DNA of 64,000 nt from Candidatus Bathyarchaeota archaeon (GCA_963741005.1 CAVUGQ010000005.1:271965-335964), one strand, 5' to 3'; numbered from the stretch's first letter, positions 16,614 to 47,389 are shown. Notes: a model not told the origin generated them from the sequence alone. Numbers and translations are program-made.

Positions 16614-16889
16614 TTGAGTCGTGCACAATCTAAAAAACTGAAAGATGAACAACGTTTCAAACAATACTATGGAGAGGAAAGCCTGGAGTTTCGTAATGCA
16701 ATGTTTTTCTGTTTTTGCAATAGCAAGTTTGACCCTGCGAAGCAGGAGTCTGTTTTTGTTGGGTGTCCTGAGGACCTAAAAATCTTTGTGGAATCGACTG
16801 TTCTAGATGCTTCTGTAGCTGATATTCCTGATTGCCCCGAAGGCTTAGTACTCTCAAATAATCGTGGGTTGGGCGCCTTCGATTTTTGA
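16614..16889 (+). CDS. Small Cys-containing hypothetical protein. First gene of the virus-like cluster.
   Basis: 91 aa. CFCNSK...GCPED...DCPEG. Confidence 0.35.
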   Translation: MSRAQSKKLKDEQRFKQYYGEESLEFRNAMFFCFCNSKFDPAKQESVFVGCPEDLKIFVESTVLDASVADIPDCPEGLVLSNNRGLGAFDF

Positions 16890-16900
16890 TGTAAGTAGAG

Positions 16901-17308
16901 TTGTGTAGAGAGGAAGGTGCATTACAAACGCCTGATAATAAAATAGAAATTACTATTGAAATGTGTGAAGCGTATAGAGCTAATTTTGTTAATCAGTTAT
17001 TGTCGATTGAGAGACAGGTCAATACACAAATTACTTCTCTCAAGGATGCTACTACCCTTGCTAAGTTTGAAATGGATAAAAGACTTGAGGGAATGAATGA
17101 ATTTAGAAATCAGTTGAAAGACCAAGCTAACATGTATTTTACTAAATCTGAGCATGAACAGTTTGGTAAAAGAATAGAGGATGACATAAGAAGTCTAAGG
17201 GAGTCAAGAGCCACTTTAGAGGGTAAAGCAAGCCAAAACTCAGTGCTTATAGCTTATGCGATTGCAGGTTTTTCAATGGTTATTTCAATATTTCAGCATT
17301 TTTGGTAG
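16901..17308 (+). CDS. Coiled-coil protein with C-terminal TM (tail-anchored). Small-terminase-like position.
   Basis: 135 aa. Immediately upstream of TerL. Confidence 0.3.
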   Translation: MCREEGALQTPDNKIEITIEMCEAYRANFVNQLLSIERQVNTQITSLKDATTLAKFEMDKRLEGMNEFRNQLKDQANMYFTKSEHEQFGKRIEDDIRSLRESRATLEGKASQNSVLIAYAIAGFSMVISIFQHFW

Positions 17309-17378
17309 CTGTGGTTTTGGTCATCCGAGCTGAATTTGAGCAGTAAAGGAATTATAATTATTTGAATGTGGCAGTTTA

Positions 17379-18644
17379 ATGACTCAGACCCAACAGGAAC
17401 AGGAAGTAACGTTGAGGTATTACCCGTTTCCCAAGCAAATGTTGTTTCACCGAGACCGCTACAAAATAAGGCACCGCGCAGTCTTTAGCGGAGTAGGAGG
17501 CGGCAAAACAATTTGCGGCTGCTTCGAAATCTTATCTATGCTCTTAGAAAACAAGAATAGCGTCGGATACATTTTTGAGCCAACCTACAAAATGGTGAGA
17601 CGAATTCTTATTCCCACTTTAGAATCAAAATGGCTGCTTGGGCATCCAATCGATAGTAACCCCATAGTTGAATCTTACAACAAAAGCGAAAACCTCATTC
17701 AATTCATAGATGGTCAATCTTTGTGGTTTGGTGGATTGGAGGAGCCGCAGTTTGCTGAAGGCGCAAACGTCAACGTCGTCTTGTTGGATGAAGCTCAGTA
17801 TATATCGCATTTTGCTGAGAGCCAAGATGTCGTATTACGTAGATTAAGAGGCAGCGGCAAAACCGATAGGGACATTACCAGTAGCATTGTTACTACGTCG
17901 CCGCCTCCGCTGATACCTGATTGTCGCCTCTACGATTTCTATGAGAACCCAGAAAAACGCAACCCTGACAGCCGAGTTTACCGTTGGTCAATGTTGGATA
18001 ACTCGTTTTTGCCTGAGAAGTACAAGCAAGAAATCATTGCAACTCACCATGGCAACTTAGCGAAACGTTTCATAGATGGCTTGTTTGCTCCAGTTGGCAT
18101 AGGAAGTTTTGATTATGATAGCGTTATTCACGAGCGCAAGTACGTCGAGCTCAGTACCCTGCAAAGTGTTGTGTACGGTGTCAACTTCGGATGGACAAAT
18201 CCCTCCGCTATCGTGGCAGTTGGCTTCGACAGCGACGGACGCGCCTACGTGCTTGACGAGTTCTATCAGAACCGAACGCAGACCGAGACGCTTATCTCGG
18301 AACTTAAAGAGATGCTTGCGCAATTTGGGCAGGGTCGCATAATTTGTGATCGCAGTTCACCCGCAACAATCGATATGCTTCACACTGCAGGCCTTAACGC
18401 TGTAGCCGACGAAAGCAAACGTGATGATGGCATACGTGAACTTGGCGGGCGCTTTATTGTGCAAGGCAATGGTAAACCACGCATTTTTATCGCGTCTAAA
18501 TGTGTGAATTTGATTCATGAAGTTATGGTTTACAACTCTGAAATTAAAGAGAATGACCACGCGATCGACGCTCTACGTTATGCCATCATGAGTGTTGTGA
18601 TGGCTAAGCCTGATGTTGAGCCTGCTTGGGTGTTTGGAGACTAA
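17379..18644 (+). CDS. terL: Terminase large subunit
   Basis: Walker A SGVGGGKT, Walker B VVLLDEAQY. C-terminal RNaseH-like nuclease with HAIDALRYAIMS. Confidence 0.85.
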   Translation: MTQTQQEQEVTLRYYPFPKQMLFHRDRYKIRHRAVFSGVGGGKTICGCFEILSMLLENKNSVGYIFEPTYKMVRRILIPTLESKWLLGHPIDSNPIVESYNKSENLIQFIDGQSLWFGGLEEPQFAEGANVNVVLLDEAQYISHFAESQDVVLRRLRGSGKTDRDITSSIVTTSPPPLIPDCRLYDFYENPEKRNPDSRVYRWSMLDNSFLPEKYKQEIIATHHGNLAKRFIDGLFAPVGIGSFDYDSVIHERKYVELSTLQSVVYGVNFGWTNPSAIVAVGFDSDGRAYVLDEFYQNRTQTETLISELKEMLAQFGQGRIICDRSSPATIDMLHTAGLNAVADESKRDDGIRELGGRFIVQGNGKPRIFIASKCVNLIHEVMVYNSEIKENDHAIDALRYAIMSVVMAKPDVEPAWVFGD

Positions 18645-20416
18645 AATTTATGGCGAGTAATCCTGAGAATCCAGTTACTTTACTGCGTGATGGCGGTATG
18701 GTAGTGTATCCTACGCAGCAAGAGGATGCTATAGCAGGCAGTAGTATACGGATTCCCTCTGTTTCTACGGCAATGGGCGCGGAGTTTGGGGAAGCAATCA
18801 CAGATGACAACCGCATATTCGCTGCGACTCGTGAGCCTATTGCAGGGTTCTTAACTGGCGGCTCCGATGGGCAACGGGGTTTTCCTAAAGACATCGTGGA
18901 AAAATGGTTCACCATAAACGATGTAACAACTAAAGATCCTGATCCAGAGCTTGATCGGGCACTGCAAAAAGAGTTTAGGCGCCTCAAATACAAAAGAGTT
19001 TTGACAGGTTTTGTTGGAGCCAAATTTCTTTATGGCAACACCTTAGTTGTCGGCTCATACGACGACGTCACTAAGCTTTCAGTGTTAGAGACTGAGAAGC
19101 CGCAGTCAGCTGCTTTGATGCAGCTTGAAGTTTACCCAAAAAATAGCTATAGCGTTTTTAGCAAAGAAACAAACCAGGAGAATTTGCGTTACGGTTTGCC
19201 ATTGATTTATCAGGTTAGTGATGGTTCAAGAACTTTCCATGTGCACTGGACCCGATGTTTTGAGTATGTTGGAGTTAGTATTCTTGATTTGATTTGGGAT
19301 GACCTCACCTGCGGTCGTAATATTCGGTGGGGTGTGGGGCAATGGGTTTATCGCACTGGCGGCGGCTTTGCGGTCATAAAGTTTCCAAAAGAAATCGCTG
19401 GAGTTCCAACTACTAAAGAGAAGTTGAGTGCGTGGGCAAATAGTAAAGAATGGAGCAACATCACACATCGCACCTCAATCTGCATTTTAGAGGGGATGGA
19501 GTTTGATTTTAAAGGTGCCTTGGGCGCAGCGCTTAACCCAGAGCCGTTTTTTGACACTAACACAAAACAGATTGCGAAAGCCACTGGTATCCCAAAAAGC
19601 ATCTTGGAGGGTGCTGAAGCTGGGGCGCTTACTGGGTCGGAGAAGAATGATCAGCAATACTACAAGAAAATTAGCGGGGAACAAAGTGAACTAGATGATT
19701 TGAACCGCTGGGTAATAGATCAACTTGAACCTGTACGTCAAACGGTGACTGTTAACGTGGATTCAGCTAAGTCTGTGGGGTCAATTTTGAAGCGTATGTT
19801 CCATAAAGCATTGGCTGTTACAGTGAAAGATCAACCTGACCCTGTTGTAGTTGATTACGATATAGTTTGGAATAGCGGGTTTGAATTATCCAAGCTTGAT
19901 GAAGCTCGGGCAGATTTGATTGAGGAGCAAGCAAACCAAACAAGGCTGCAGTATAAAACTGTGGATGAGGTTCGAAGCGACAATAATCTGAATCCTTTGC
20001 CGTTGGGTGCTGGTGAAGTTGTTATTTCTTTAAGTAAATCGCCGTCTTCAGGTCAATTTCCAAGTAGCTTGTCTGGTATCACGGCGTCAAATTCGACTGG
20101 AACTGTAAATGCTGACGATGCAGGTTCGCAGTTGCCTAATATGCGCAATTTGCTCAAGCCTATTATTAAGCAGGTTTTTGATGGGCATATGACACATGAT
20201 TTAGCGCTGCAGCAAGGCCTCACACTGGTAGAGTTCTATTGCAACACCGAAAAAGAACGTGCCCTCGATTACGTCCGCGGCAAATTCCAAAACCCCACTT
20301 TGCAGATTAGCCCAGAGCAAGAATGCGCATTTCAACGCCAAAAAACACGCTATACAAAAGACTTCACATCCATCTTGAAGAAAGCTGAGCGATTAGCGAA
20401 GGCTAAACTTCCATGA
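18626..20416 (+). CDS. Portal protein (putative)
   Basis: 596 aa. Immediately after TerL, with overlapping stop and start. Confidence 0.6.
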   Translation: MGVWRLKFMASNPENPVTLLRDGGMVVYPTQQEDAIAGSSIRIPSVSTAMGAEFGEAITDDNRIFAATREPIAGFLTGGSDGQRGFPKDIVEKWFTINDVTTKDPDPELDRALQKEFRRLKYKRVLTGFVGAKFLYGNTLVVGSYDDVTKLSVLETEKPQSAALMQLEVYPKNSYSVFSKETNQENLRYGLPLIYQVSDGSRTFHVHWTRCFEYVGVSILDLIWDDLTCGRNIRWGVGQWVYRTGGGFAVIKFPKEIAGVPTTKEKLSAWANSKEWSNITHRTSICILEGMEFDFKGALGAALNPEPFFDTNTKQIAKATGIPKSILEGAEAGALTGSEKNDQQYYKKISGEQSELDDLNRWVIDQLEPVRQTVTVNVDSAKSVGSILKRMFHKALAVTVKDQPDPVVVDYDIVWNSGFELSKLDEARADLIEEQANQTRLQYKTVDEVRSDNNLNPLPLGAGEVVISLSKSPSSGQFPSSLSGITASNSTGTVNADDAGSQLPNMRNLLKPIIKQVFDGHMTHDLALQQGLTLVEFYCNTEKERALDYVRGKFQNPTLQISPEQECAFQRQKTRYTKDFTSILKKAERLAKAKLP

Positions 20417-20766
20417 GTTTTGAATCGTTGTTTGATGCGGCTGTGCCTTTCTGGAATTCTGAGCAAGGCCTTCTGGAACGAATTGGATTATTAGCGGATC
20501 AGGTGCAGTTTGGCACTTATAATGGCTCCTTAAAAGTTATTGCTATCTCCGTTGGCGCTACTGATTTACGGATTAGCGGAGACATCACACGCAATACTTG
20601 CGAGTGGTGTGCGTTGCATGTAGGCCAAGTTTACCATCGAGGACAGTTTACGCCTGAATTGCCTAAGCATCCAAAGTGCCCTCACTATTATGAGATAGAA
20701 CGTACTGGCGCTGAACCTGTGGATCCTGACTCTGCGTTTGCAGCATTCTGGAATCTTACCTTCTAA
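20413..20766 (+). CDS. Minor head protein, Mu-F-like C-terminal domain (CxxC...HPxCxH)
   Basis: CEWCALHVGQVY...PKHPKCPHYYE resembles the conserved Cys/His motif of phage Mu F / SPP1 gp7 C-terminal domains. Coupled to the portal gene. Confidence 0.45.
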   Translation: MSFESLFDAAVPFWNSEQGLLERIGLLADQVQFGTYNGSLKVIAISVGATDLRISGDITRNTCEWCALHVGQVYHRGQFTPELPKHPKCPHYYEIERTGAEPVDPDSAFAAFWNLTF

Positions 20767-20936
20767 ATTCATGATGAACCAAATTGATTAGTGCGTGTGT
20801 GAACAGTTAGCTACATCAAATAGAGGAAGCCTTTGACTCGTGCACTCATCAATGCGTGCGTACCAAACCTAAATTGAGTTTGACAATTATTATTATCAAA
20901 AGACCCTAAATCCGCGAACCACCCTAATCACCACTC

Positions 20937-21641
20937 ATGAACACAGGTTTAACTTCCCTGCATAAAATTCTGAAAGATGAAACGAGAAGACAAATCATAC
21001 TACTGCTAAATGAGAAAAGCAGCCTTACCTACACCGAACTCTTGGATAGCTTGGAAGTTGTCAGCACAGGGCTTCTGAATTATCACCTGAAGGTTTTAGG
21101 TGACCTCTTATCGAAAAACGAAGAGGAAAAATATGTACTGGCAGAAAAGGGTAAACTTGCTTCCAGATTGCTTTCGGAGTTCCCAGAGGACAACAACCTT
21201 AAGAAGAAACCTGCATGGTGGCAAAAATTCTGGGTAGCGGAAGCCATCGTTACCCCCATTTACTTAGCGATCAATATAGCATTGTACTTCATAGGCTATA
21301 TCGACGCGACTACATTTTACAACCTTACACTCGGAATTTTTGCATTCATTGGAATCGGCTACATGATTACACACATAAAAAAAGACATACTCTCAGCCGA
21401 AGGCTTACTAAAACTCAACAAAGCGCTGTATCTGCTTGTCGGACTCTTAGTGGGAGGATTCATCATATGGATCGGCTTGACGGTTGCCATGAATGTTACA
21501 GGCGTAAGATTATTGCTAGCCAGCATCATAGGAGACGGCGCTCTTGCCATAGCAACTATGATCCCTTGCTACATTATCGGCGGCTTACTCGGCGATTGGA
21601 TAGGCAAAAAAACAAACTACTACCTCCCACACTACCCATAA
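20937..21641 (+). CDS. Membrane-anchored ArsR-like winged-HTH protein (N-terminal wHTH, C-terminal about 4 TM)
   Basis: LTYTELLDSLEVVSTGLLNYHLKVL (wHTH). Hydrophobic C-terminal half. Confidence 0.55.
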   Translation: MNTGLTSLHKILKDETRRQIILLLNEKSSLTYTELLDSLEVVSTGLLNYHLKVLGDLLSKNEEEKYVLAEKGKLASRLLSEFPEDNNLKKKPAWWQKFWVAEAIVTPIYLAINIALYFIGYIDATTFYNLTLGIFAFIGIGYMITHIKKDILSAEGLLKLNKALYLLVGLLVGGFIIWIGLTVAMNVTGVRLLLASIIGDGALAIATMIPCYIIGGLLGDWIGKKTNYYLPHYP

Positions 21642-21926
21642 ACAACTGTGTAAGAGTGTTGGCGTAGGAATGCCTTTTTAGAAGCTTCCGATGATTTGAC
21701 TTAATTTAAGCAAGCTGTCGAGCAAATATTTAGTATGAACAACTATTCAGCGGGTCGCACCCTTTTGGGTCTGAGACCCAGCGACCCACGATATCGTGTT
21801 TGTCCTTTGATTGTATTGGATTAGCTTAAAACATTAAACGAATCCCAACGGACCCAATATCAAGTATTTGGGTTTCAAATTTTGCATGTCCCTTCTAAAA
21901 TAGTCACAATTTTGTGGTGATGTAAT

Positions 21927-22283
21927 TTGATTAGGCAAATTGTTGTAGACTTCGCCGTTTTGGAGGATAGTAAAATCATCCAGGATGACAATAAATTCCT
22001 CGTTGTTAAGGCAGTGATAGCCAGCGAAATTGTGCATAAATACAAAGATGGCATGGCGTACAAGCTTGCGGACGAGTTGGAAAAGGCAGCCTGGACTGCG
22101 GATTGCAGATGGGTTAAGTTGTTGGCTCATCCGAAATCCAGCAGCCTTGACTGTGTAGAGGATGTTAACGGGAAAATGATGAATCCTGTTTTTCGTAAGG
22201 ACCTGGGACGTGTGGTTTCCATGGGAAGAAAAATCAGAGTTTGCATCATTCTGGAACCAACACACCCAACTTTAAACAGTTGA
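21927..22283 (+). pseudogene. Fragment (5' part) of the protease/scaffold gene duplicated from 29259-29600
   Basis: IASEIVHKYKDGMAYKLADELEKAAWTADCRWVK versus IASEIVHKYKDGMAYKPADELEKAAWTAEGRWVK of 29358..30413. Upstream nucleotide block 21916-22030 is near-identical to 29258-29393. Confidence 0.7.
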
Positions 22284-22479
22284 GACAAATTCACATATAA
22301 ATTGATCGATTTGGCTGTTGCAAGTTTTTTTAATTGTGTTTCTAGTTGAGACAGGCTGTTTTCATGTATTCATAATTCATAAGTGACTTATTACCCGTTC
22401 ATTGACTAGTTGAGTTGGGGTAATTCTAATACAGTATCTCGATCAGAATGGTATAGTTGTAGAAGTATCTGATTTGGCG
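22244..22479 (+). repeat. Promoter-region direct repeat, copy 1 (near-identical to 25231-25464). Contains a 2x CTAGTTGAG motif.
   Basis: About 235-bp near-identical block read directly. Confidence 0.85.
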
Positions 22480-22989
22480 CATTCATCCAAAAAAGGCGCT
22501 ATTCGTGTTTTGTATGTAGACGACGACCCTTATAGTATAGAGATTTCCAAGCAGATCCTAATGGACATCGATGCCCGCTTTGAGATTAGCGACGCTTGTT
22601 GTGTGGATGTAGCCTTCAAAAAACTGGAAACTGGGCAATATGATGTTGTTGTTTCTGATTATGAATTGCCTCTTAAAAATGGCTTAGAATTTCTAAAGGA
22701 GTTGCGTAAAAATAAAAATGAAATTCCGTATATTTTGTTTACGGGTAAGGGCAGAGAAGAAGTTGCGGTTAAAGCTTTGAATTTAGGTGCTGACAGTTAC
22801 ATAAGCAAGATCGGTTCTACAAAAACAGTTTTTTTCGAGTTGGCGGATGCAATAAACAAAGCAATTCAACGCAAGAAATCAAAAGAGCTGCTTGCCGGAT
22901 CAGAGACAAAATATCGCACTAGTAGAGAAATCACTTCAAGGAATATTAGTTACAAAAGTAGGTCCACTCAGGCTAGTTTTTGCAAATAA
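22474..22989 (+). CDS. Response-regulator receiver (REC) domain. N-terminal part of sensor 1, separated from the kinase ORF by a frameshift or overlap.
   Basis: VLYVDDDPYSIEISKQIL...VVVSDYELPLKNGLEFLK...FTGKGRE. The paralog 25460..28480 has REC-PAS-HK in one frame. Confidence 0.75.
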   Translation: MAHSSKKGAIRVLYVDDDPYSIEISKQILMDIDARFEISDACCVDVAFKKLETGQYDVVVSDYELPLKNGLEFLKELRKNKNEIPYILFTGKGREEVAVKALNLGADSYISKIGSTKTVFFELADAINKAIQRKKSKELLAGSETKYRTSREITSRNISYKSRSTQASFCK

Positions 22990-24796
22990 TGCTATGGGAA
23001 AAATCCTGGGTTACTCTTCGCAGGAATTACTGTCCTTATCGCCCCAAGGAATTATGGGCTTGATTTATCCTGAAGACAGGGCTATTTTCTTTAAACGAAT
23101 GGAAAATCGCTTGCAAGGTGAAGAGCCAGAGTCATTCCACGAGTTTCGTGCAGTGAGAAAAGACGGCTCAATAATCTGGATGAACGCGCTTGCAAATCGA
23201 ATTGAGTTTGAAGAGCAACCTGCAGTACAGGGCGTTTTCTTAGATATTGACGAACGCAAGAAACTAGAAGCTACAGTTAAAGAAAAACTGGATATGCTTG
23301 AAGCCCTCACAGAAAACATCGGCGCGGGCTTTGTAACCATAAGCAAAGATTATCGTGTAATGTACGCGAATAAATTCGTAAAAAACAATTTAGGCAACGT
23401 AGAGGGAAAATTGTGCTATGCAACCCTTAACACTTTGGACCACATTTGCCCTGATTGCGGAGTAAAAAAAGTCTTCAAAGAGGGAGTCGCTAAAGACTCT
23501 CACGAATATTCTCAAATAGGATTAGATGGCAAGCGGTTTTTCGTTGACATTATTGCCACTCCCCTTAAAGATAAAGATGGAAATGTGACTGCAGCATTAG
23601 AGTTTATTGTAGACATAGGTGAAAAAAAACGCTTACAGCAAAAACTGCAGACAAACGAGGCAAAGTTTAGAGCTATAAGTGATTCTGCAATTGACGCTAT
23701 TTTCATGTTTGATGAAGAAGACAAAATCACTTACTGGAATCCTGCCTCTGAAAGAATTTTTGGATTTACTGAAGAAGAAGTAGTTGGCGAGAAAGTAAAC
23801 GCGACACTCGTGCCTTCTCGCTTTCGCGCAGAGCACCTGAAAATCACTTCGGAATTGGGCAAAGTCAAGAACAAGGAAAATGCTGGTGAGACTCGCGAGT
23901 TGCCTGCTCTGCGAAAAGATGGTGAAGAATTTTCAATGGAGCTTTCTATGGCGCCACTGCAGCTAGAAAATAAAGGGTACTTCGTAGCTATAGCAAGAGA
24001 TGTGACTGAGCGCAAAAAAGCTGAAGAGCTCCGAAAAGTTTTGGAGAGAAAAGTAAACGACTATTCAAAACACTTGAAATGCATGGTTGAATTGAGAACT
24101 GTCCAGTTAAGGGATGCTAATGAACGACTCGTCAAGTCTGAACGCCTAGCCGCTATAGGCGAATTAGCTGGCATGGTCGGTCATGACCTGCGTAACCCGC
24201 TTGCAGGAATCAAAAACGCTGCCTACTACTTGAAGAAGAAAGGCACAGACATTTCTGAAACTAAATCTAAAGAAATGCTTGAAATAATCGATAAAGCCAT
24301 TGGCCACTCAGATAGCATCATCAACGACTTGCTAGACTACTCAAGAGAGATGCATCTGGAACTAACAAAATATCTAGCAAACAATCTTGTAGATGAGGCT
24401 ATTGGCATGATTCAGGTTCCAGAGCGAATACAAATTATAAATAACGTTCCGGATACGATTTGGATTTGGGTCAATGCTGATAAGATGATGCGAGTTTTCA
24501 TAAATTTTATCAATAATGGAATTGACGCAATTCCTGAGAAAGGAACACTCATAATGACAAGTTGCCAAACAAGAAACTATATGAAAATCAAGTTTTCTGA
24601 CACAGGCAAAGGCATACCTGAAGAAACTTTCAAAAAGCTTTTCACGCCTCTGTTCACCACTAAAGCACAGGGTATGGGTTTTGGCTTAGCAATATGCAAA
24701 CGAATCGTAGAAGCGCATGGAGGCGCCATAACCGTGAAAACAGCCGTAAAAAAGGGAACAATATTCACAATAGCTTTACCCCTAAGGAATAGTTAA
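22892..24796 (+). CDS. Sensor histidine kinase 1 (3 PAS, HisKA, HATPase_c). One PAS carries the Cys triad C-x9-C-x2-C.
   Basis: H-box AGMVGHDLRNPLAGI. G2 box KAQGMGFGLAICKRIVEAHGG. PAS-linked RDVTERKKAEE segments. CYATLNTLDHICPDCG. Confidence 0.8.
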   Translation: MPDQRQNIALVEKSLQGILVTKVGPLRLVFANNAMGKILGYSSQELLSLSPQGIMGLIYPEDRAIFFKRMENRLQGEEPESFHEFRAVRKDGSIIWMNALANRIEFEEQPAVQGVFLDIDERKKLEATVKEKLDMLEALTENIGAGFVTISKDYRVMYANKFVKNNLGNVEGKLCYATLNTLDHICPDCGVKKVFKEGVAKDSHEYSQIGLDGKRFFVDIIATPLKDKDGNVTAALEFIVDIGEKKRLQQKLQTNEAKFRAISDSAIDAIFMFDEEDKITYWNPASERIFGFTEEEVVGEKVNATLVPSRFRAEHLKITSELGKVKNKENAGETRELPALRKDGEEFSMELSMAPLQLENKGYFVAIARDVTERKKAEELRKVLERKVNDYSKHLKCMVELRTVQLRDANERLVKSERLAAIGELAGMVGHDLRNPLAGIKNAAYYLKKKGTDISETKSKEMLEIIDKAIGHSDSIINDLLDYSREMHLELTKYLANNLVDEAIGMIQVPERIQIINNVPDTIWIWVNADKMMRVFINFINNGIDAIPEKGTLIMTSCQTRNYMKIKFSDTGKGIPEETFKKLFTPLFTTKAQGMGFGLAICKRIVEAHGGAITVKTAVKKGTIFTIALPLRNS

Positions 24797-24827
24797 AATG
24801 TACCTATAAGATGAACATAAACTAATA

Positions 24828-25049
24828 GTGGCATTAGTTTTAGGTACTGTAGGTTTTTTTGTTGGTCGCGCGGCGGTACATGGTTTTATTTTGAAGGATC
24901 GCTCATTTTTAAAAGAGTTTACTCTTTCCATTGACTCGCCAGGAGAGTTTCATTGGCAAAAATACGATTACGTGCAGCGGAACATCTGCATAGACCAATT
25001 GGCAGCGCCATCAACACAGGATCCTATACTAATGCACTTCAATTGTTAG
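24828..25049 (+). pseudogene. Internal fragment of the protease/scaffold gene (matches aa about 110-150 of 29358..30413)
   Basis: SPGEFHWQKYDYVQRNICIDQLAAP versus TPGEFQGQKYDYVQRNICIDHLAAP. Confidence 0.65.
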
Positions 25050-25230
25050 CACCCGCATAAGGTGTTCAGTACTTCAAGCTGGCTGGTCCGCAACCAAAAT
25101 GCGAATATTGCATCAAGTATTATGGGTGCATCTATCGGCAAGGCATGTATATAGCCCGAGTTTCCTGCACACCCAAATTGTTCTCACACCTGGGATATTT
25201 GGTTTCAACGGGGAAAAAAATCAGATTTCG

Positions 25231-28480: not shown

Positions 28481-28553
28481 TAAAATACCTTATTCTAAAC
28501 CTTTCTAGAGAGAGCGATAGAAGCCAACAAAAGAAGAGTTTCTGCCTACTTCC

Positions 28554-36563: not shown

Positions 36564-36646
36564 GTGATGGTTGTTTTCTTAGCGCTTGAGATTAAGGCAG
36601 GGTTAGTGAAGAAATCTTTATTGGAGACGATTCCTAATAGTAAAGT

Positions 36647-38836: not shown

Positions 38837-39307
38837 GTTGTCTAAGAATGATCTTAAAGTTAAAATAAGGCTTTGGGAAAGACTCTAAAATTAACGAAGA
38901 TCCAAAGCAGTTTAGTCAAGAAAGTTTGAATGAAGTCAAGAAAGCGTTGTTTGGTATTATTTCTTATTTAGGCGTAGTGGCTTGTTTGCTTCTTTCTTGG
39001 CTATTTTTAGCGCTTCAGATGGGTCAAATTTCTTGGAGTTTATGCAGAATTTGGCTTTGCATTCTTGGAAGTGGATTTCTCCATCCGAAGATTCTAACTT
39101 AACCAGTTTTGTTGTTTTGCTCAAGAATCAAACCTCCAATTATAACAATGTTATATAATCGATTTAAGGATATCGATCAAACTTCAATAAAACTTGAAAT
39201 TGAGCCTTTTTTGAGTCGTTTTGCGAAGTATTCCTTTTGCAACTATCTCAGTAATCTTGCCTGTAAGCAAGTTACAATATAAAACGAAAAAATGGAGGTA
39301 AAAAAAA

Positions 39308-39700
39308 ATGAGTGCAAGTCCCGTATTGGGTAGAAATGCTCGCTTGCTGAAAAGTGGCGTAGCGATTGGTTATGGCAAAAACATTATTGTTGGAGCAACT
39401 GCCGAAGTCATAAAAGTGTATAGCATGGATTCTTTGACGCCTGCTGTTACTGGCTCTGGGAAACAATCTTTCACGTGGAGTATGGATCGGTTGTTTACTG
39501 ATGAAACATACCTTGCTTTGCTTATGGCTGGAACACAGTTTGATTTGATTTTTGCGCCAGAAGGCACACCACTGGATAGTTCAGCGTATGAAACTTGGAA
39601 AAACTGTACCATACTGAAGTGTGAGCGCAGCGCAAGTGAAGACGGTGGTTTGCTCGAAAAGATCAGCGGCGAAGCGGACGACGTAGAGTTCCCAGCGTAG
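39308..39700 (+). CDS. Major tail protein (putative)
   Basis: 130 aa. First gene of the tail module, before chaperone and TMP. Confidence 0.4.
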   Translation: MSASPVLGRNARLLKSGVAIGYGKNIIVGATAEVIKVYSMDSLTPAVTGSGKQSFTWSMDRLFTDETYLALLMAGTQFDLIFAPEGTPLDSSAYETWKNCTILKCERSASEDGGLLEKISGEADDVEFPA

Positions 39701-39714
39701 AAGGTTAATGTTGA

Positions 39715-40188
39715 ATGCCTAAAAAAGAGTCTATTTCCCCTAATTCTTTGGAAGTGTTGAATACTCCTGAGAACAAGGAGCGTTTTGCTAAATTTCAAGC
39801 GCAAGCTGACGCATGCGACCAGAAAAAGGTTGATGCCGCTAAAATCTTTGATCCCGTAGCCTTGCTTAAACGAGCTTCTACGATTCATGAGTTTAATCAT
39901 CCAACTCTTGGCATAGTCAGGTTTGGGGAGTTGGTTTTAAACGACTCTGCGATCCTTGAGAAATGCATAACGCCCGCTGCAAAAACAGCAATGACTCTGT
40001 ACTTGATGCTTAAGAAAGCGCATCCGGGTCTCCCCGAATATACACCTGAAAACATCCTTGATTTCTACAATATGTTTCCGTTAGCTGAAGGTGCAGCTCT
40101 TTTGCAATTCATTAGTGAGCAACCCAGTTTTTTACCCAAAAAAAGCTCGAAGAATGGATTAGCGTCCACGGTGGAGCCCAAGACTTAG
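39715..40188 (+). CDS. Tail assembly chaperone-like protein
   Basis: 157 aa. Between major tail protein and TMP. Confidence 0.35.
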   Translation: MPKKESISPNSLEVLNTPENKERFAKFQAQADACDQKKVDAAKIFDPVALLKRASTIHEFNHPTLGIVRFGELVLNDSAILEKCITPAAKTAMTLYLMLKKAHPGLPEYTPENILDFYNMFPLAEGAALLQFISEQPSFLPKKSSKNGLASTVEPKT

Positions 40189-40306
40189 GCTATGTGATGA
40201 GTACGTTTCCACGGTATGGATCCTTTGAAGCCGTTGGGAAACTAAGCATTACTCGTTTCAAGTTTTTGGTAGCTTGGGCAAGATGGAGCAGAAAAGAGGC
40301 GCGTAA

Positions 40307-41632
40307 GTGAAGGATTTAGAAATTAGGTTAACTGCTGTTGATCAGGCAAGTGCTACAGTAGCGGAAGCTTCAAAACGTATCAGTGATAGTTTACGTGAGG
40401 TTTCTGATAGCCAAAATGGTTTAGCTGCGGCAACACAGCAAACTGTAGCTCCGTTAACTCAGGAAGAGCAAGTTCAGCTTGAAACAGCTGGCACAGCTCT
40501 TCAGTTAAAGACAGCTCAACAGGATCTTAGTGATGCTCAAAACAACCTTAATGTTGCTATACGAGGGTATGGAACTAACAGTGCGGAAGCTGCAGCTGCT
40601 CTTAGAGATCTAAATTCTGTTCAATCAAACGTTTCATCGTTGCAGGCTCAAGTGGGAGCGACTACGAAGCAGAATACGGTTTCTATGCGTGATTTTACCA
40701 CGGGGATCTCTGGGGTTGCGACGGCTTCTTTTAGTTTGTATGGTGCCTATGACCGAATTAATGCAGCGGAGATTAGTCTTGACCGTTCTAACTTGATGGT
40801 TAAGTCAAGTACTAAGTCGGTTGAGGATGCGCAGCGGACTCTTTCTAAAGCGATTTCTGAGCATGGCGTTAGTAGTCAGGAGGCGAAGTCTGCTTCTGAT
40901 GCGTTAAGTATTGCTCAGGATCGGTTGGCTTTGGCGGATGAGCGTGCCCTGCAAGCTCAGGAAAACGTGAATAAGTCAATTATGTCGGCTGCCTTGCAGA
41001 TTATCCCGACGTCAATAACTATGGTTGATAGTTTAAGTCGTGCCTGGAAGAATTTTCCTGACGTCAGCGCATTGTTGACCAAGATTAGTAGTGGTGTTGC
41101 TAACGTGGGGATCTCGGCTAAGACTGCGGCTATTGGGGTTGCGGCTTTTATGGGCGGTTTCTTAATTGCTGATACTTTGTTGAGTGCTATTCCTGAGGAT
41201 ATGCGTCAGATCGCTGGAGTATTAACTGCTTCTATTGCTGCGATTGTGGCTGCTACGATTGCGTGGATGGCTTTTCAGGGAACTATGACGATGGGTGTTG
41301 CTGTCCCCATTATTCTCGCGGCAGTTGGCATCGGGATTGCTGGAGTGAAAGCCGCTGTTGCTATGGCTGAAGGCGGCGTTGTTGAACGTCCAACTTATGC
41401 GTTAATCGGTGAAGCTGGTCCAGAAATCGTTATGCCTCTTAGCCAATATGAATCAATGCATCCTCAGCACTCAGCAACGGTGACAAGCAATAACTCACCC
41501 CAGGAAGTCACCGTAATTAATCTTACACAGAACCTTTACGGCGACATCAAAAGTGAAGCAGATGAGGATAGAGTTGCTCAGAAAGCGGTTGAGTTGCTCG
41601 ATTCGCGTAGTGTGCATAGGAGAAATATGTAG
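40307..41632 (+). CDS. Tail tape measure protein
   Basis: N-terminal A/Q/S-rich coiled coil, central TM helices, 441 aa. Confidence 0.7.
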   Translation: MKDLEIRLTAVDQASATVAEASKRISDSLREVSDSQNGLAAATQQTVAPLTQEEQVQLETAGTALQLKTAQQDLSDAQNNLNVAIRGYGTNSAEAAAALRDLNSVQSNVSSLQAQVGATTKQNTVSMRDFTTGISGVATASFSLYGAYDRINAAEISLDRSNLMVKSSTKSVEDAQRTLSKAISEHGVSSQEAKSASDALSIAQDRLALADERALQAQENVNKSIMSAALQIIPTSITMVDSLSRAWKNFPDVSALLTKISSGVANVGISAKTAAIGVAAFMGGFLIADTLLSAIPEDMRQIAGVLTASIAAIVAATIAWMAFQGTMTMGVAVPIILAAVGIGIAGVKAAVAMAEGGVVERPTYALIGEAGPEIVMPLSQYESMHPQHSATVTSNNSPQEVTVINLTQNLYGDIKSEADEDRVAQKAVELLDSRSVHRRNM

Positions 41633-41985
41633 TGACGTGGACTATTGAATCAGTAACTATTCCAGTGCCCTCAAAATGTAGAATCACTTGCAGAGCAAAC
41701 AAAGAAGAAATGCCTGTTTCCGGCGATTACCCTGCGCAGACAGTTGACGGTCTAAAATTAATGGTTGTGCTTGAAGGCGCGTTTGTAGGTGTTATGGCAA
41801 CTGTGTATGCTGCAACTGTTGCTCCGCTTCTATTGTTGGTTGGCACGCAAGTTACACTTTCAGCTGACGGCGTATTGGATGGTGAATGGATGCTTGATGA
41901 CTTCATACCCAACCGTGACAACCCTTCACTGTGGACGTACACCATGACATTGAGCAAAGGAAGCTCTAACTACACTTTTGGGTGA
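41632..41985 (+). CDS. Distal tail/baseplate small protein
   Basis: Coupled between TMP and the tail fiber gene. Confidence 0.3.
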   Translation: MTWTIESVTIPVPSKCRITCRANKEEMPVSGDYPAQTVDGLKLMVVLEGAFVGVMATVYAATVAPLLLLVGTQVTLSADGVLDGEWMLDDFIPNRDNPSLWTYTMTLSKGSSNYTFG

Positions 41986-44318
41986 GCGTTATGGGTAAAT
42001 GGGAAATTGAATACTACGATGACGGCGAAAGTGGCTTCATGCCGTTTTTGCCCTCTGAGATTGATCAAATTTATTTTGAGCATGAAGGCGAACCCTACGC
42101 AACCTTCTACATCAATAACACGACTGCAAATCAGACTTTGATTCAACAGGATCTCCTAGTCAACATCTACTTTGACAGCGTGCTGCAGTTCACTGGAATA
42201 CTGCAGGGTGGAGATCTTGAAGCTAAACCTACAAGGATTCTTGTCACAGTAGTCGATGATTTATTCATTACGCTTGATAAAGCAACTCCAATATCAGGTG
42301 CGTTTTCTGAGCGTCACGGTGCAAAAGCGATTCTTGACGTGATTCTTGCCGGTACAGGGTACACTTCTCATGCAAGCGTGCCGACAACTGTGATTCCTGT
42401 TGTTTTCTACCATGCGAACCGCTTAGACTGCATGGCTTTTCTACGCAAAGCACTAAACATGGATTTTTGGCATGAAGGTACAGTGGTTCATTTTGGCGCT
42501 GAAGGTGACACTGTAACTCTAACCCCTGCAGCAACTGACCTAACTATTTCTAAACGTGCCCTTAGCCGCAGAAAACAATATGACAAAGTTGAGGTGCGAG
42601 GTGTAGATGGTTATGGCTATCACATTATTGGAACTGCAGGCACCGGCTCAAAGGTGAAAGTAATCAATGAAACAGAGGTTGCAGACGCAACAACCTTGAA
42701 CACTATTGCTGCACGCAAACTTGCAGATTTAACCACTGACTCTGCAGGATTGCCAATCAGCGTGCCTATTTGGATTGGAAAAAGCTATGCTCTTGGGAAC
42801 AACGTTACAATTGTTGCACCACGCTATCTATTAAATGGCACTTACAAAATTAAGCAGTTGACTAAGACAAAAACTAAAGTCAGCATGCAACTTGACAACT
42901 TCAGAAAACCACTTGATGCAACAGTTGATGAACTCAAAAATTGGGAAGATCGCGGCATCTATGTACCTGGATCTACGTCTTGGAGTTTGAATCTGCAGGG
43001 GTTGATCGGGCTATTCCATTTGAATGAAGGTGAAGGCACTGATGCTAAGAACAAAGCGCCTGTTGATGCTCCTATTGACGGCGTGATCACTGATGGCAGC
43101 TGGGCAGATGGTCCTGTAACAAAAATACTTGAATTTAATGGTTCAAGTTCAATGGTTAGTTTGGGAGATGCAAGTAAATCTGGAATTAGCCTTACTGGCA
43201 AATTAAGTTTTGGTGGGTGGTTTAGTCCTTCAGCCGCAGATGCAACAGAAAGAAATGTGTGTCATAAAAGTGGTCAATTTGGTTTGCATTATCACTCAAA
43301 CACAGGAGTAGTCACTGCAACTCTAACTATAGGCACAACGGTGTATAGTTTTGATACAGATGCAGGTGTGGCAACTGTTGGTGCACGATTGTTTGTCATG
43401 GTAACCTACGACGGCGCTCATGTGCGCATGTACGTGAATGGTTATCTGCACAAAGAATGGACTCAAACAGGTAACCCTGATTCATCTGCCAATACAGTGT
43501 ATCTTGGCGTTTTCTTGCAGGGTGTTTTAGCTGAAGTCATGCTTTGGCAGCGAGCGTTGGTTGATCAGGAGGTGCTTGAGCTCTACTTTTTTCCCCTGCT
43601 ACGAGTTGTAGGCGGCAGCGGCGATGGCGGTGAGCCTGAACCTCCAGAGCAAAACGCCCTAAACAAAAGCGGCGTGGCAACATCACTAGCGGAAACCCAA
43701 TCTGCCTATCAAATATCAGAGGAGCTTGAAGTCATCAATGATCCAGGCTGCATGGAAACCATAGCTGAATCTATTGTTGTTGCCAAAGGGTCAACTATGC
43801 AGTCCATTAGCGAGGACATCGAGGTCACTCTCAATCCTCCTGACTGGACGCTCAACATCGGGGTTTCGCCCCCGCTTGTAGGACGCTCCATGTCCCCATC
43901 TGAAGGCGCCAACGGTGTACCAAGCGGATTGTCCCAAGTGGTGAGATGCACCGAAGCTCAATATTGGGCTGTTAAGAGTTGGATGGTGAACCACAATTCA
44001 GTCGCCGGCACAGATTTCAACGGATACTCTGAGGTCACTGTGGGACCTTACCTTGGCGGCTTGACAGCCGAAGCGATCGTCATAATCTACGCTGGCTGGG
44101 AGCTTTCTGTAAGCGGATCAACCAACAACGGTACCGATCAGATTCCTTACGATGAGAACAGCATGAGCTACACCCGCAGAGCCTACGACTCAGACGTTGA
44201 GGTTTACGATGGAGCATACCTCGACGGCATTAGGAAGACCACTTCCGCTTCGTATGCAGCCCCAGCCCAAGACGCCAACACCAGTCACACCTTAGAGTTT
44301 AAGTTCCACCCCAAGTAG
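41982..44318 (+). CDS. Tail fiber/baseplate protein with LamG (concanavalin-like lectin) domain
   Basis: LamG_3-like segment LSFGGWFSPS...ARLFVMVTYDGAHVRMYVNGYLH...VYLGVF...MLWQRAL. 778 aa. Confidence 0.65.
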   Translation: MSVMGKWEIEYYDDGESGFMPFLPSEIDQIYFEHEGEPYATFYINNTTANQTLIQQDLLVNIYFDSVLQFTGILQGGDLEAKPTRILVTVVDDLFITLDKATPISGAFSERHGAKAILDVILAGTGYTSHASVPTTVIPVVFYHANRLDCMAFLRKALNMDFWHEGTVVHFGAEGDTVTLTPAATDLTISKRALSRRKQYDKVEVRGVDGYGYHIIGTAGTGSKVKVINETEVADATTLNTIAARKLADLTTDSAGLPISVPIWIGKSYALGNNVTIVAPRYLLNGTYKIKQLTKTKTKVSMQLDNFRKPLDATVDELKNWEDRGIYVPGSTSWSLNLQGLIGLFHLNEGEGTDAKNKAPVDAPIDGVITDGSWADGPVTKILEFNGSSSMVSLGDASKSGISLTGKLSFGGWFSPSAADATERNVCHKSGQFGLHYHSNTGVVTATLTIGTTVYSFDTDAGVATVGARLFVMVTYDGAHVRMYVNGYLHKEWTQTGNPDSSANTVYLGVFLQGVLAEVMLWQRALVDQEVLELYFFPLLRVVGGSGDGGEPEPPEQNALNKSGVATSLAETQSAYQISEELEVINDPGCMETIAESIVVAKGSTMQSISEDIEVTLNPPDWTLNIGVSPPLVGRSMSPSEGANGVPSGLSQVVRCTEAQYWAVKSWMVNHNSVAGTDFNGYSEVTVGPYLGGLTAEAIVIIYAGWELSVSGSTNNGTDQIPYDENSMSYTRRAYDSDVEVYDGAYLDGIRKTTSASYAAPAQDANTSHTLEFKFHPK

Positions 44319-44328
44319 GTGAAAAAAG

Positions 44329-45030
44329 ATGGAAAGCATTACAAACGGAGTAAAAGAAATCGATTTCCAGAGCAGGTCATGGCGTGACCAACTCAGGGGC
44401 GCCGCCTTCAGCCAGAAACTATCCATCAAGATAGCAAAGGCTCGCATCGCCGAAGCACAAAGAAACCGCCTGCGCTTCCCAGAGTTGGGGATGGTAGCCG
44501 CCCTCAACCGCGAGGGCGTCATAAAGGAGGTCGGGTTCAACAGTGAAGGCGATTTATTTCTTGATAACTTTGGTCAATGGCTCGCTGGCATCGTAGTGTG
44601 CAAGAGCAATCAAGTAAAAGTTCTCAAGGACATTACTGGAACCAATCGCACCCTCCGATTTACCCACATAGGCGACGACAATCGATGGAATAAACAAATC
44701 AACGCTACACCTGGAATGTATTTTCAGCTTGGGAGCGGTACAACAGCTCCAGCAAGGTCAAACTATTGCATCGAAACCGCCTTTGCAGGCGCCCCCGAAA
44801 ACGCCAAATTCGAGGCGAGTTGGGGAATGCACACTAGCGGGTTTTGCGTGAATGCTGGCGCCATATCAGCCGGCGGAAGTGGCACCGTCAACGAGTCGAT
44901 TGCTATAACATATTGGGCTACTGACCTCAATAATGAGTATTTTTTCGCTATTGTGAGGGATGCTATTTGCCCAGGAGTTAGCTTCGTGCCTTCTGATGTT
45001 TTGTGTGCTACCTTAACATTCACATTTTAG
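44329..45030 (+). CDS. Tail-tip paralog 1 of 4 (GDLxLDNFG / F-x-G-S-G-T-x-P-x-R-S / FHD motifs)
   Basis: Shared motifs with 45042, 45731 and 46387. Confidence 0.6.
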   Translation: MESITNGVKEIDFQSRSWRDQLRGAAFSQKLSIKIAKARIAEAQRNRLRFPELGMVAALNREGVIKEVGFNSEGDLFLDNFGQWLAGIVVCKSNQVKVLKDITGTNRTLRFTHIGDDNRWNKQINATPGMYFQLGSGTTAPARSNYCIETAFAGAPENAKFEASWGMHTSGFCVNAGAISAGGSGTVNESIAITYWATDLNNEYFFAIVRDAICPGVSFVPSDVLCATLTFTF

Positions 45031-45041
45031 GACTTGAGTAA

Positions 45042-45731
45042 ATGGTTCGATTAAACGGAGAGCATTGGAAGGAGAACTTGATAGGGGAGACGCTTGATTA
45101 CCGCCTAAAGAAAGCCATTATCGAGCGACAGTGCAGGGAGAACGCTCAACTCATCAACCACATTAACGAATCAGCTTTTGTCGTTGTCACTGACCCTAAA
45201 ACTAGAAGGATAAAGGATATTGGGTTCAACAAGCCCGATGACTTGATACTCGACAATTTCGGATTGTTCCTCAATGCTCTAATGTGTCCCCCAATCAGTT
45301 ACACTGTAGCCCATAGCTCCGCCCCGATGGTTGACACCGATGGCGTCTCCCGTACAGTTGGCGTTTATTATTTTGTCCTAAATCAAGCCTACGAGTATAA
45401 CGAAATCTCGTCCTCTTACACCTACATCAAGTTTGGCAGTGGCAGCACCACGCCGGCGAGGTCAGACTGCAATATTGAGACAGCCCTTGGAGCTTCACCA
45501 GAGAACGGTGAGATCAAGATTAGTAATGGTCAGTATGGCAGCGGTCGAGTTGCTTTTGGCGGAGCAGTAATAGCTGCCGGTTCAGATACTTTGAGTGAAG
45601 TGGGGTTTTTTATTTATTGTAAGGCACTAAGCGCCCTATGCCACTTTATGTGGTTTCATGACCTTTTGTCCACCCCTGTCTCTTTTGTGGCAGGTGATAA
45701 GTTGACTGGAGTGTACTCGGTGGGGATCTGA
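45042..45731 (+). CDS. Tail-tip paralog 2 of 4
   Basis: DIGFNKPDDLILDNFG, FGSGSTTPARSD, MWFHDLLSTPVSF. Confidence 0.6.
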   Translation: MVRLNGEHWKENLIGETLDYRLKKAIIERQCRENAQLINHINESAFVVVTDPKTRRIKDIGFNKPDDLILDNFGLFLNALMCPPISYTVAHSSAPMVDTDGVSRTVGVYYFVLNQAYEYNEISSSYTYIKFGSGSTTPARSDCNIETALGASPENGEIKISNGQYGSGRVAFGGAVIAAGSDTLSEVGFFIYCKALSALCHFMWFHDLLSTPVSFVAGDKLTGVYSVGI

Positions 45732-46390
45732 TGGTTGATATAGACTTTCTAAGCAAAAGCTGGCAGAGTCAAGTGCTTGGATCCAAAGCTGACCGACATC
45801 TCGCCCTGGAAATGGTGAAGGCTCATGCTAAATGCTCGCGTCGGGCTGGCAACTTGCTTAGCGAGTCAGTGGTGTGCTTTGTCACGGATAGGGACAGGCG
45901 GATCTCTGATGTGGGGGTGAATTGCCCTGGCGATTTGATGCTTGACAACTTTGGCAAAATATTGGCTGGGTTCTTCACTTATCAGAGGACTTCTGCAAGA
46001 TCTGTTTCACTCGCCCGCTCTGACACGGGCGCACTTTACTCGGTTAATGTGTGGTGGACTTCATACTCATCGATGACTCTTGGCGGCACCTGCATTAAGA
46101 TAGGCGGGGGCAACATGGCTCCTAACAGGGCTGATTGGAATTTGACTTCTCCCTTAGACTCTCCAGTCGGCGATTCCTATTACCCAAGCGAAGGCAGTTA
46201 TACTGGGGGCATAGTGGCTTCGATAGTGTCGATCGCCTGCCCTTTTAGCGGAGTGTGCAGAGAGGTGGGCTTGTTTTACGACCCGCAAGCCTACAACTAT
46301 GACTTCATGATCTTCCATGACCTCCTCCAGCAGCCTGTCTCATTTTCTGAGGGGCAAGCTGTCCATGTAGTGTATGGGGTGAACTTGTGA
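45731..46390 (+). CDS. Tail-tip paralog 3 of 4
   Basis: DVGVNCPGDLMLDNFG, MIFHDLLQQPVSF. Confidence 0.6.
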   Translation: MVDIDFLSKSWQSQVLGSKADRHLALEMVKAHAKCSRRAGNLLSESVVCFVTDRDRRISDVGVNCPGDLMLDNFGKILAGFFTYQRTSARSVSLARSDTGALYSVNVWWTSYSSMTLGGTCIKIGGGNMAPNRADWNLTSPLDSPVGDSYYPSEGSYTGGIVASIVSIACPFSGVCREVGLFYDPQAYNYDFMIFHDLLQQPVSFSEGQAVHVVYGVNL

Positions 46391-47085
46391 GCGAGCTAAT
46401 CAAAGCCACCGATGAACATTGGAAGGACAACCTCATCGGCTTGACCCTCGGCAATCGTCTCAATTCTGCCATTGCAGCAAGGAGGCTTAAGGAGGTAAGA
46501 GCGGAGGTTCTATGTGGCTTAACCGACTTCACTCATGTTGCCTCCATTGACCCCAAGGGAAGAATTAGGGACATTGGGTTTAGCTCTGCAGGAGATCTTA
46601 TCCTTGATAACTTTGGGCAGTTTCTGTCTGGGTGGTTTGGTTCCCCAGGGGCCTATACCAGCAACATCGTCGTCCGCACCCTCTACGATACGACCAACGC
46701 CGCCCGTTCGGTCTATGTGAGGGGTTGCGCGAGCAGCTCTAGCACTAACTGGAGCTACTGCTCTAGCAGCTCAGGCATCGTTTTCCAGTTGGGTTCAGGT
46801 TCAACAGTCCCCGTCCGCTCGGATTACAAGATCCTAACTAACCTCGGCACCGCCCCCGAAAACGCTGCCTTCCTTCCAGCTGATTCCTCTTATGCTTCTG
46901 GGTTATTAACTGAGGCTGGAGTTGTGGTTGCTGGGGGGTCTGGCACGGTGAGGGAGGCTGGTGTGTTCATGCGTGTTAGGGCTCCGAGCACTCTGTACTA
47001 TTTCATGCTGTTTCATGATCAGGTGACCCCAGTCGCCTACGTGGCTGGAGACCGCCTCACCCAGACTCTTTCATTGGGGATATAG
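46387..47085 (+). CDS. Tail-tip paralog 4 of 4
   Basis: DIGFSSAGDLILDNFG, FQLGSGSTVPVRSD, FMLFHDQVTPVAY. Confidence 0.6.
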   Translation: MSELIKATDEHWKDNLIGLTLGNRLNSAIAARRLKEVRAEVLCGLTDFTHVASIDPKGRIRDIGFSSAGDLILDNFGQFLSGWFGSPGAYTSNIVVRTLYDTTNAARSVYVRGCASSSSTNWSYCSSSSGIVFQLGSGSTVPVRSDYKILTNLGTAPENAAFLPADSSYASGLLTEAGVVVAGGSGTVREAGVFMRVRAPSTLYYFMLFHDQVTPVAYVAGDRLTQTLSLGI

Positions 47086-47098
47086 GAGGTGAACTTGA

Positions 47099-47389
47099 AT
47101 GGTAACTAAGACAGTGAAGCTCGGGGAACTCTTGAAGCTTGAGCCGTTAGTGAATGTCGACCTCAAAGGTTTGAGGGATGGCAAATGCCATATGACCTTT
47201 AGCCCAGATGAATCCACCATCCTTGAACTGGCTTTTGACAACCAGAGCACCGAGTTGCTGAAGCAGAATGTGGCAGCTATCCGCGCTATCCTAGAGGAGG
47301 AGTTGTTTTTGACGGCTTCGGTGACTAAAAAGTTAATCTTGCAGGACGTCGCTGTCACCGAGAAGCAATGGGTTGAGACCCCCATTTAA
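47099..47389 (+). CDS. Small hypothetical protein, last gene of the virus-like cluster
   Basis: 96 aa. Confidence 0.3.
   Translation: MVTKTVKLGELLKLEPLVNVDLKGLRDGKCHMTFSPDESTILELAFDNQSTELLKQNVAAIRAILEEELFLTASVTKKLILQDVAVTEKQWVETPI

Follow-up and report, generated by a model that had tools for sequence, protein, structure and literature searches.

A stretch of 64,000 nucleotides (nt) from a Candidatus Bathyarchaeota archaeon (GCA_963741005.1 CAVUGQ010000005.1:271965-335964; GC content about 41%), hereafter the window, carries a virus-derived locus. The region from about 7433 to 47389 is probably an integrated provirus that derives from a temperate siphovirus-like virus, has been truncated at its 5′ end and has taken up three islands of cargo genes. 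We hold this reading with more confidence than doubt. As part of it, the lineage is best explained as undescribed, siphovirus-like (with a non-contractile tail) and infecting Bathyarchaeia-type archaea. Bathyarchaeia are abundant, uncultured sediment archaea, of which only a handful of viruses are known. An earlier note on this DNA had described a tailed-virus structural cluster at 16614-47389 and called it either a provirus remnant or an element resembling a gene transfer agent (GTA). The locus is real and was spotted correctly, although its extent was underestimated.

Essentially all open reading frames (ORFs) of about 50 amino acids (aa) or more in the window were scanned against Pfam and PHROG. 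All the genes that the earlier note had named in its complete, colinear structural cluster are present where it had placed them (Table 1). One name has to be given up: the 117-aa protein at 20413, called MuF, has no family match and no hidden Markov model support for that label, although the gene itself is conserved after the portal gene in compact virus contigs. The right end of the cluster also stands, at 47389; nt homology with a related locus, L016, stops at 47402. The left limit does not, as the element reaches to about 7433. A plus-strand block of ParB-like, ATPase-GNAT, TerS-like and winged helix-turn-helix (HTH) genes is part of the element: it is 81-93% identical in nt in the relatives (given here by locus numbers, L) and always lies upstream of the same late genes. 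Between 7490 and 47389 there are about 27 viral genes, all intact and of full length when compared with their orthologs. The element measures roughly 40 kb, of which the islands, 18.7 kb in total, make up about 47%.

What is missing can be seen from the nearest sister, ENA contig_45496 (c45496; 33,509 bp, reconstructed from L019 plus L101), in which TerL and the capsid protein are 93% and 98% identical in aa to those of the window. At its left end is a 251-aa gene with matches to integrase PHROGs (phrog_1, 1.5e-8; phrog_216, 8e-7) that make it tyrosine-integrase-like. Early genes, including those for 297-aa and 341-aa proteins, follow and run straight into the ParB-like gene. The early module is 97-100% identical in L017, L018 and L020, and the host neighbours differ (ribosomal L3/L4/L23 genes beside L017, metabolic genes beside L018). 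In L102, where the ParB block is 89% identical in nt to that of the window, there are about 7.8 kb of plus-strand early genes. Altogether, the module lies directly upstream of the ParB-like gene in the nearest sister and in five other relatives. Five short contigs (L103-L107) are 97% identical in nt to the window from 7433 rightwards and have the end of an early gene upstream. The window belongs to a contig of 797,683 bp; its 63-aa protein is also encoded, identical or nearly so, on contigs of 2.1 and 0.5 Mb.

In the window, homology stops abruptly at 7430-7433, which is the very 3′ end of the relatives' upstream early gene. To the left stand an unrelated 220-nt segment, duplicated in island A, and then a minus-strand array of surface-protein genes. 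The integrase-like and early proteins of the sister and the early proteins of L017, L018, L020 and L102 have no match in the window (tblastn, E<1), and the Pfam scans of the cluster and both flanks agree with the earlier note in finding no integrase, recombinase, primase, polymerase or lysis enzyme. A direct repeat of the attachment (att) type was sought as well: no 12-mer is shared between 6900-7700 and either 47300-48400 or 58400-59100. There are no tRNA genes in the window, and a tRNA scan of ten related loci for att sites found none. The simplest reading is that a deletion or rearrangement removed the integrase and early end. Next to the breakpoint, the window differs from untruncated relatives by only about 3%, so the truncation was probably recent. 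The label "provirus remnant" is supported by the early module that six relatives have upstream of the ParB-like gene, by the lack of any trace of it in the window, by the abrupt end of homology and by the lack of an att-like direct repeat around the element.

The earlier note's interleaving of viral with host-type genes, two-component sensors among them, is confirmed by Pfam and by composition. The three islands lie between conserved modules, vary among relatives and are host-like in composition. Island A separates the TerS/winged-helix genes from the late operon, island B the 117-aa gene from the protease gene, and island C the pre-tube gene from the tube gene. Junction A is short in L017 and L102 and holds other secreted proteins in L005, L018, L019 and L020. 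At junction B, the two viral genes are contiguous in L015 (about 190 nt apart), and the cargo is a ZnuABC transporter plus NikR in L007 and a 290-aa protein in L006. At junction C, the flanking genes adjoin in c45496, and L016 has a gap of only ~600 nt ahead of its tube gene; in the compact virus L010, 27 nt separate a homolog of the 163-aa gene from the tube gene that follows. Since each junction is empty or differently filled in relatives, the islands are insertions at hotspots.

The islands also contain duplicated stubs of the viral genes that flank them. The last ~20 codons of the 163-aa gene are repeated within island C; the 3′ end of this gene recurs as an exact 19-nt repeat (35003 and 35932; none expected by chance), and a diverged copy of about 66 nt lies at 39200-39267, about 40 nt before the tube gene. 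Island B has copies of the protease upstream region and 5′ end at 21866-22204 and an internal piece of the protease gene at 24937-25009; what natively comes after the 117-aa gene has been displaced into this island, to 25064-25206. Such stubs suggest that DNA was inserted, or recombined, at the ends (3′ or 5′) of the viral genes, and the event could have been either site-specific or a homologous exchange between differently loaded relatives.

The assembly is of the metagenome type and repeats are abundant in the region, so one has to consider a chimeric contig that joins virus and host reads. Such an artefact appears very improbable. Independent assemblies, made from other samples and by other sequencing centres, show the block-and-island architecture again, and the island edges coincide with gene boundaries. 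The stubs are diverged (75-92% identity) and hence are not collapsed or misjoined repeats.

Pairwise ratios of non-synonymous to synonymous substitution (dN/dS) between the window and its relatives are 0.04-0.25 for 23 viral genes. Several points weigh against a truncated remnant or limit the case for it. The combination of some 27 intact viral genes with strong purifying selection is unlike a long-dead remnant; on the window's own branch there are 67 synonymous vs. 13 non-synonymous changes (pN/pS 0.06; TerL, N-terminal part of the portal and capsid), and the relatives' own branches give the same value, 0.06. Tetranucleotide usage in the islands matches the flanks and not the virus blocks, which speaks for the reading, but the host baseline of this comparison was drawn from surface-protein arrays, the window being without housekeeping genes. 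Gene calls are imperfect in several relatives, which come from long-read assemblies with frameshifts. At 58587-58883, 11 kb past the tail module, there is a small gene conserved with L016, and the missing module could sit outside the window, behind further islands. The intact genes, with no sign of decay, fit a recent truncation, and equally well a continued use, whether by the host or by a helper virus. The frameshifts seen in L006, L007 and L102 were not taken as evidence of decay, as the "contig_N" ENA assemblies appear to be long-read assemblies with indel errors.

One rival reading is that the provirus is intact and inducible, with its integrase and early genes just beyond the window, one more cargo island away. 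All morphogenesis genes are intact and under purifying selection. Islands of several kb already split the element, which makes a further split plausible, and the small gene shared with L016 is itself found well past the tail module. The flanks, moreover, are surface-protein arrays like the islands, and the promoter-like repeats upstream of island genes are common to the flank genes. However, the early module adjoins the 63-aa and ParB-like genes in six relatives with nothing in between, the sequence beyond the break is unrelated and holds no displaced copy of an early gene, and the window shows neither a trace of the early genes nor an att-like repeat. We consider an intact provirus unlikely, though worth keeping in mind.

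The other label of the earlier note, GTA-like, would make the locus a domesticated particle producer, kept by selection without integrase or early genes and serving as a landing pad for host surface-protein and sensor genes. The main point for it is the intactness of the genes together with the pN/pS of 0.06 on the window's own branch. A complete structural cluster without integrase or replication genes (as seen in the window only), a capsid 94-98% identical across 71 cluster members from many metagenomes, and host genes embedded in the cluster also speak for it. Yet nothing specific supports the label. The nearest sister has near-identical head genes (94-98%) together with integrase-like and early genes, and so there is no separate domesticated clade. 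Relatives carry parts of the module in different chromosomal contexts (ribosomal L3/L4/L23 genes, metabolic genes). The kinases are not conserved, as island B is missing in L015 and other cargo takes its place in L006 and L007. A TerS-like gene has been kept. Selection on the branch may also predate the recent truncation, given that the breakpoint flank is 97% identical to untruncated relatives. We rate a GTA-like particle producer as improbable, and give as little credence to the version in which host regulators, possibly the embedded two-component sensors, control DNA packaging and release. It should be noted that these points only remove specific arguments offered for a GTA; they do not speak against particle production as such. 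In a milder variant, cassettes would be inserted at the junctions by a mechanism for which the 3′ ends of viral genes serve as attachment sites.

With truncation as the preferred reading, the copy has retained the ParB-like/ATPase-GNAT/TerS-like/winged-helix block and a complete head, connector and tail gene set, and would have lost the integrase and the early (presumed replication and lysogeny) genes that the sisters hold directly upstream of the ParB-like gene. Having lost them, it should be incapable of autonomous excision or replication. The genes are most likely intact because the truncation is recent or because the module is still in use; the user could be a co-resident helper virus, or related viruses may draw on the module as a reservoir for recombination. 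With its anchored surface proteins, sensor kinases and methyltransferase, the cargo is most likely moron-like, that is, it would be expressed for the benefit of the host and not for particle production.

Table 1. Features of the element and its surroundings (positions in the window; L and c45496, related loci; TM, transmembrane)
Feature	Position	Strand	Evidence or composition
Left junction segment	7212-7433	+	Window-only; 56-aa ORF; duplicated at 13616-13778 (82%)
63-aa protein	7490-7681	+	4-nt overlap with ParB-like gene; 97% nt identity to L103-L107
Block 1	7678-10241		GC 0.456
ParB-like nuclease-domain protein, 187 aa	7678-8241	+	PHROG ParB-like/methyltransferase N-domain 1e-14 to 1e-9; 84% aa to sisters
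ABC-type ATPase (8280-8903) and GNAT acetyltransferase (8780-9298)	8280-9298	+	Two halves of phrog_11143
Small-terminase candidate, 170 aa	9340-9852	+	HTH_11 E 0.043, N-terminal; 81-94% aa in sisters
Winged-helix regulator HTH_45, last gene of block 1	9954-10241	+	E 3.6e-5; homolog L019 7110-7403, 86%
Island A: C-terminally anchored secreted proteins, HTH_45 protein (11945-12286), membrane protein	10417-16361	mostly -	GC 0.404
Conserved non-coding region upstream of late genes	16362-16613	+	98% to L017 over 16362-16488
Block 2	16614-20766		GC 0.440
Two small proteins before TerL: 91 aa; 135-aa coiled-coil with C-terminal TM helix	16614-17308	+	91% aa to L005 and L006, 83% to L007
TerL, 421 aa	17379-18644	+	Terminase_6N 5e-13, above curated cutoff; 333 homolog clusters
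Portal, 596 aa	18626-20416	+	Phage_portal_3 2.6e-21, 76 bits vs. 33.8-bit cutoff
Conserved head-module protein, 117 aa, Cys/His motif	20413-20766	+	95% aa to L006 and L007; nt homology to L010
Island B	20767-29233		GC 0.399; plus strand
ArsR/DUF7347 membrane regulator (island B)	20937-21641		
Two receiver-PAS-HisKA-HATPase kinases (island B)	22474/22892-24796 and 25460-28480		
S-adenosylmethionine (SAM) methyltransferase (island B)	28554-29114	-	
Block 3	29358-35041		GC 0.443
Head maturation protease, 351 aa	29358-30413	+	DUF2213 8.7e-11; PHROG head maturation protease 1e-12
Scaffold-like protein (putative), 139 aa	30578-30997	+	Position and composition; 98% aa to L006; dN/dS 0.04
Head decoration/cement protein, 189 aa	30997-31566	+	L006 ortholog matches Phage_cement PF22758; weak PHROG scaffold match
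Major capsid protein, 297 aa	31539-32432	+	Linocin_M18 (HK97-fold family), 66 bits vs. 24.3-bit cutoff
246-aa protein and connectors of 110, 146 and 167 aa	32502-34559	+	246-aa ortholog weakly GT2-like
Neck1-type/tail completion connector, 146 aa	33615-34055	+	PHROG 1e-10
163-aa viral protein	34550-35041	+	36% identity to L010 173-aa protein, E 1e-19
Island C	35042-39300		GC 0.384
Cassette 1 (island C): 236-aa secreted protein	35100-35810	-	
Cassette 2 (island C): secreted, NosD/beta-helix and 377-aa proteins	36093-38836		
Block 4	39308-47389		GC 0.476
Tail tube protein, 130 aa	39308-39700	+	
157-aa protein, in the position expected of a tail assembly chaperone	39715-40188	+	78% identity to c45496
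Tape measure protein, 441 aa	40307-41632	+	Weak PHROG tape measure matches 3.5e-5; position; TM-rich C-terminal half
117-aa protein and 778-aa tail-tip protein	41632-44318	+	Orthologs in L016 and c45496
Four tandem paralogs, 233/229/219/232 aa	44329-47085	+	Each with 80-90% identical ortholog in L016
96-aa protein, last gene conserved with L016	47099-47389	+	85% aa identity
Flanks, both sides			GC 0.40

The non-coding stretch at 16362-16613 is probably the late promoter region. The two small proteins encoded between it and TerL have no family match in the scans. By its sequence, the capsid protein is HK97/encapsulin-like, and the closest solved structures to it are family-1 encapsulins (7e-12). 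We considered an encapsulin nanocompartment and rejected it because of the gene context: the gene lies in a terminase-portal-protease-tail cluster, without a cargo enzyme next to it. In a Thorarchaeota metagenome-assembled genome (MAG), one homolog is annotated as "encapsulin". A capsid that passes the Linocin_M18 threshold bears on the evolutionary link between viruses and encapsulins, and also on mis-annotation.

As there is no sheath gene, the tail would be of the non-contractile type. The 157-aa protein that follows the tube has no family match in the scans. The tail-tip protein of 778 aa (41982-44318) contains a Laminin_G_3 domain (Pfam). The four tandem paralogs that come next are presumed to be distal tail or receptor-binding components. 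They are mutually 26-34% identical and have a common motif, GDLxLDNFG; no library assigns them to a known family, and an AlphaFold2 (AF2) model of one of them, built from four sequences, was unusable (predicted local distance difference test, pLDDT, 46). Two small genes of the right flank resemble genes of related elements. The gene at 58587-58883, which encodes two TM segments, is 88% identical in nt to L016 14411-14717, a site 2 kb beyond the tail module of that locus; the window copy is frameshifted, having lost 1 nt close to its start. This may be a gene of the element's right end that has been displaced, possibly one for a holin-like protein. The other, a 72-aa ORF at 60398-60616, shares 49% identity with the 96-aa gene at the tail end of contig_45496 and may be a stray fragment of another provirus.

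In block 1, the product of 9340-9852 is a putative small terminase (TerS-like), and the TerS of the compact relative L010 matches the same weak HTH families. The earlier note had taken it for the only repressor-like candidate, but it is not the only HTH protein: there are HTH_45 proteins at 9954-10241 and 11945-12286 and one of the ArsR type at 20937-21641. The neighbouring ATPase and GNAT ORFs overlap out of frame and correspond to consecutive halves of one PHROG family, phrog_11143. L017 has them fused into one gene of 458 aa, and in the other relatives they are split; a frameshift, two genes or programmed recoding could account for this. A direct repeat of 163 nt (82%) has one copy at the left break (7212-7374) and the other within island A (13616-13778). 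Included in it are a promoter-like stretch and the beginning of a small ORF (MSxGGSRHADFEKI...).

The secreted proteins of islands A and C have a Thr/Pro-rich linker, a C-terminal membrane helix and a basic tail, and are of the same type as those of the long flank arrays. An NCBIfam search for archaeosortase-type sorting signals in the surface proteins gave no match. The motif TTTGTCAA upstream of surface-protein genes is only about twofold enriched. A promoter and terminator scan of island C gave nothing above shuffled sequence, with a bacterial consensus that is not suited to archaea. In island A, the stretch 11438-11685 lacks an obvious long ORF; it matches L005 4527-4775 at 94% identity and, in reverse orientation, L007 2485-2646 at 82%. 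It is better conserved than the neighbouring cargo, and could represent a small gene, an RNA or one end of a mobile element.

The flanks are mirror-image arrays of paralogous surface-protein genes that bracket the whole element. They contain an inverted repeat of 771 nt with 95% identity (3772-4542 and 61566-62336) and many weaker inverted pairs. Because of this arrangement, the 57 kb in between could be invertible by recombination. A DUF3800-X RNA (Rfam RF02984) is found at 60049-60121 on the minus strand (53.7 bits vs. a gathering score of 38.2); adjoining it is a gene pair of the toxin-antitoxin type, UPF0175/DUF3368 (PIN-like), at 59043-59875.

The capsid falls in a 90% cluster of 71 members that includes a protein from a Candidatus Bathyarchaeota MAG. 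A scan of GTDB species genomes with a TerL alignment found mostly bacterial prophages, at about 25% identity, and the only archaeal matches were two Bathyarchaeota MAGs at 47-48%. The presence of Bathyarchaeota MAGs in both sets leads to the assignment of a Bathyarchaeia-type host. Among 50,697 deposited phage and virus genomes (INPHARED, which may not include MAG-derived elements), none matches the capsid, and the identity of TerL does not exceed about 26%. Single-sequence capsid scans gave no match in IMG/VR or in GTDB species genomes, and only three short loci in JGI metagenomes. The wider family consists of 26 IMG/VR contigs with capsids 40-62% identical, up to 37.9 kb long. Compact relatives, from metagenomes and IMG/VR, measure 30-38 kb and include the metagenome contigs L008 and L010 (33-35 kb). 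In the wider-family contigs and in L008 and L010, the 10 kb on either side of the capsid gene are almost entirely plus-strand and without islands; being rich in islands therefore characterises the window's own clade.

L001 was tried as a comparator and set aside, as only TerL is common to it and the window. L001 and L002 (JGI Ga0598257_0000164 and Ga0598263_0000197) are 41.2-kb contigs, found in 13 samples and circularly permuted with respect to each other, with a TerL 76% identical in aa to that of the window. They are probably the complete genome of another virus, one with which the window's lineage exchanges terminase genes.

The locus and its relatives document a widespread siphovirus-like lineage with an encapsulin-like capsid and compact genomes of the free-virus type, 30-38 kb long, the chromosomal copies of which accumulate host-like surface-protein and signalling genes at three fixed junctions. 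They provide a concrete case for provirus decay, module exchange and the ferrying of cell-surface genes in archaea. On present evidence the element is not an archaeal GTA; it would matter far more if it were.

Elements of this kind are already known. Tailed Bathyarchaeia proviruses, BATPV1/BATPV2 and others, have been found through integrase, direct-repeat and tRNA markers (PMC11705971), and Kunpengvirus is an integrase-encoding tailed virus of Bathyarchaeia (PMC10848311). What is new is the undescribed lineage and its truncated, island-laden state. The element shares with BATPV1/BATPV2 and Kunpengvirus the host class and the character of an integrated head-tailed element with an HK97-type capsid, terminase, portal, tail and accessory host-like genes; judged by their descriptions, it differs in that no integrase, terminal direct repeats or tRNA are found in the window. 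To Haloferax tailed virus 1 (HFTV1) and other archaeal siphoviruses the sequence identity is only about 11%, and the capsid is nearer in sequence to family-1 encapsulins than to any solved virus capsid. In its partial deletion, and in the variable host-like cargo between conserved modules, the element resembles the cryptic prophages of E. coli (Rac, DLP12 and e14) and moron islands. Unlike in cryptic bacterial prophages, the whole morphogenesis module is intact and only the early/integration end is gone, cargo makes up nearly half of the element, and the island edges carry duplicated viral-gene stubs. The GTAs, RcGTA of Rhodobacter capsulatus and VTA of Methanococcus voltae, differ from it in that here the nearest sister bears an integrase-like gene and the sensor kinases are not conserved among sisters; relatives that share parts of the module lie in different chromosomal contexts.

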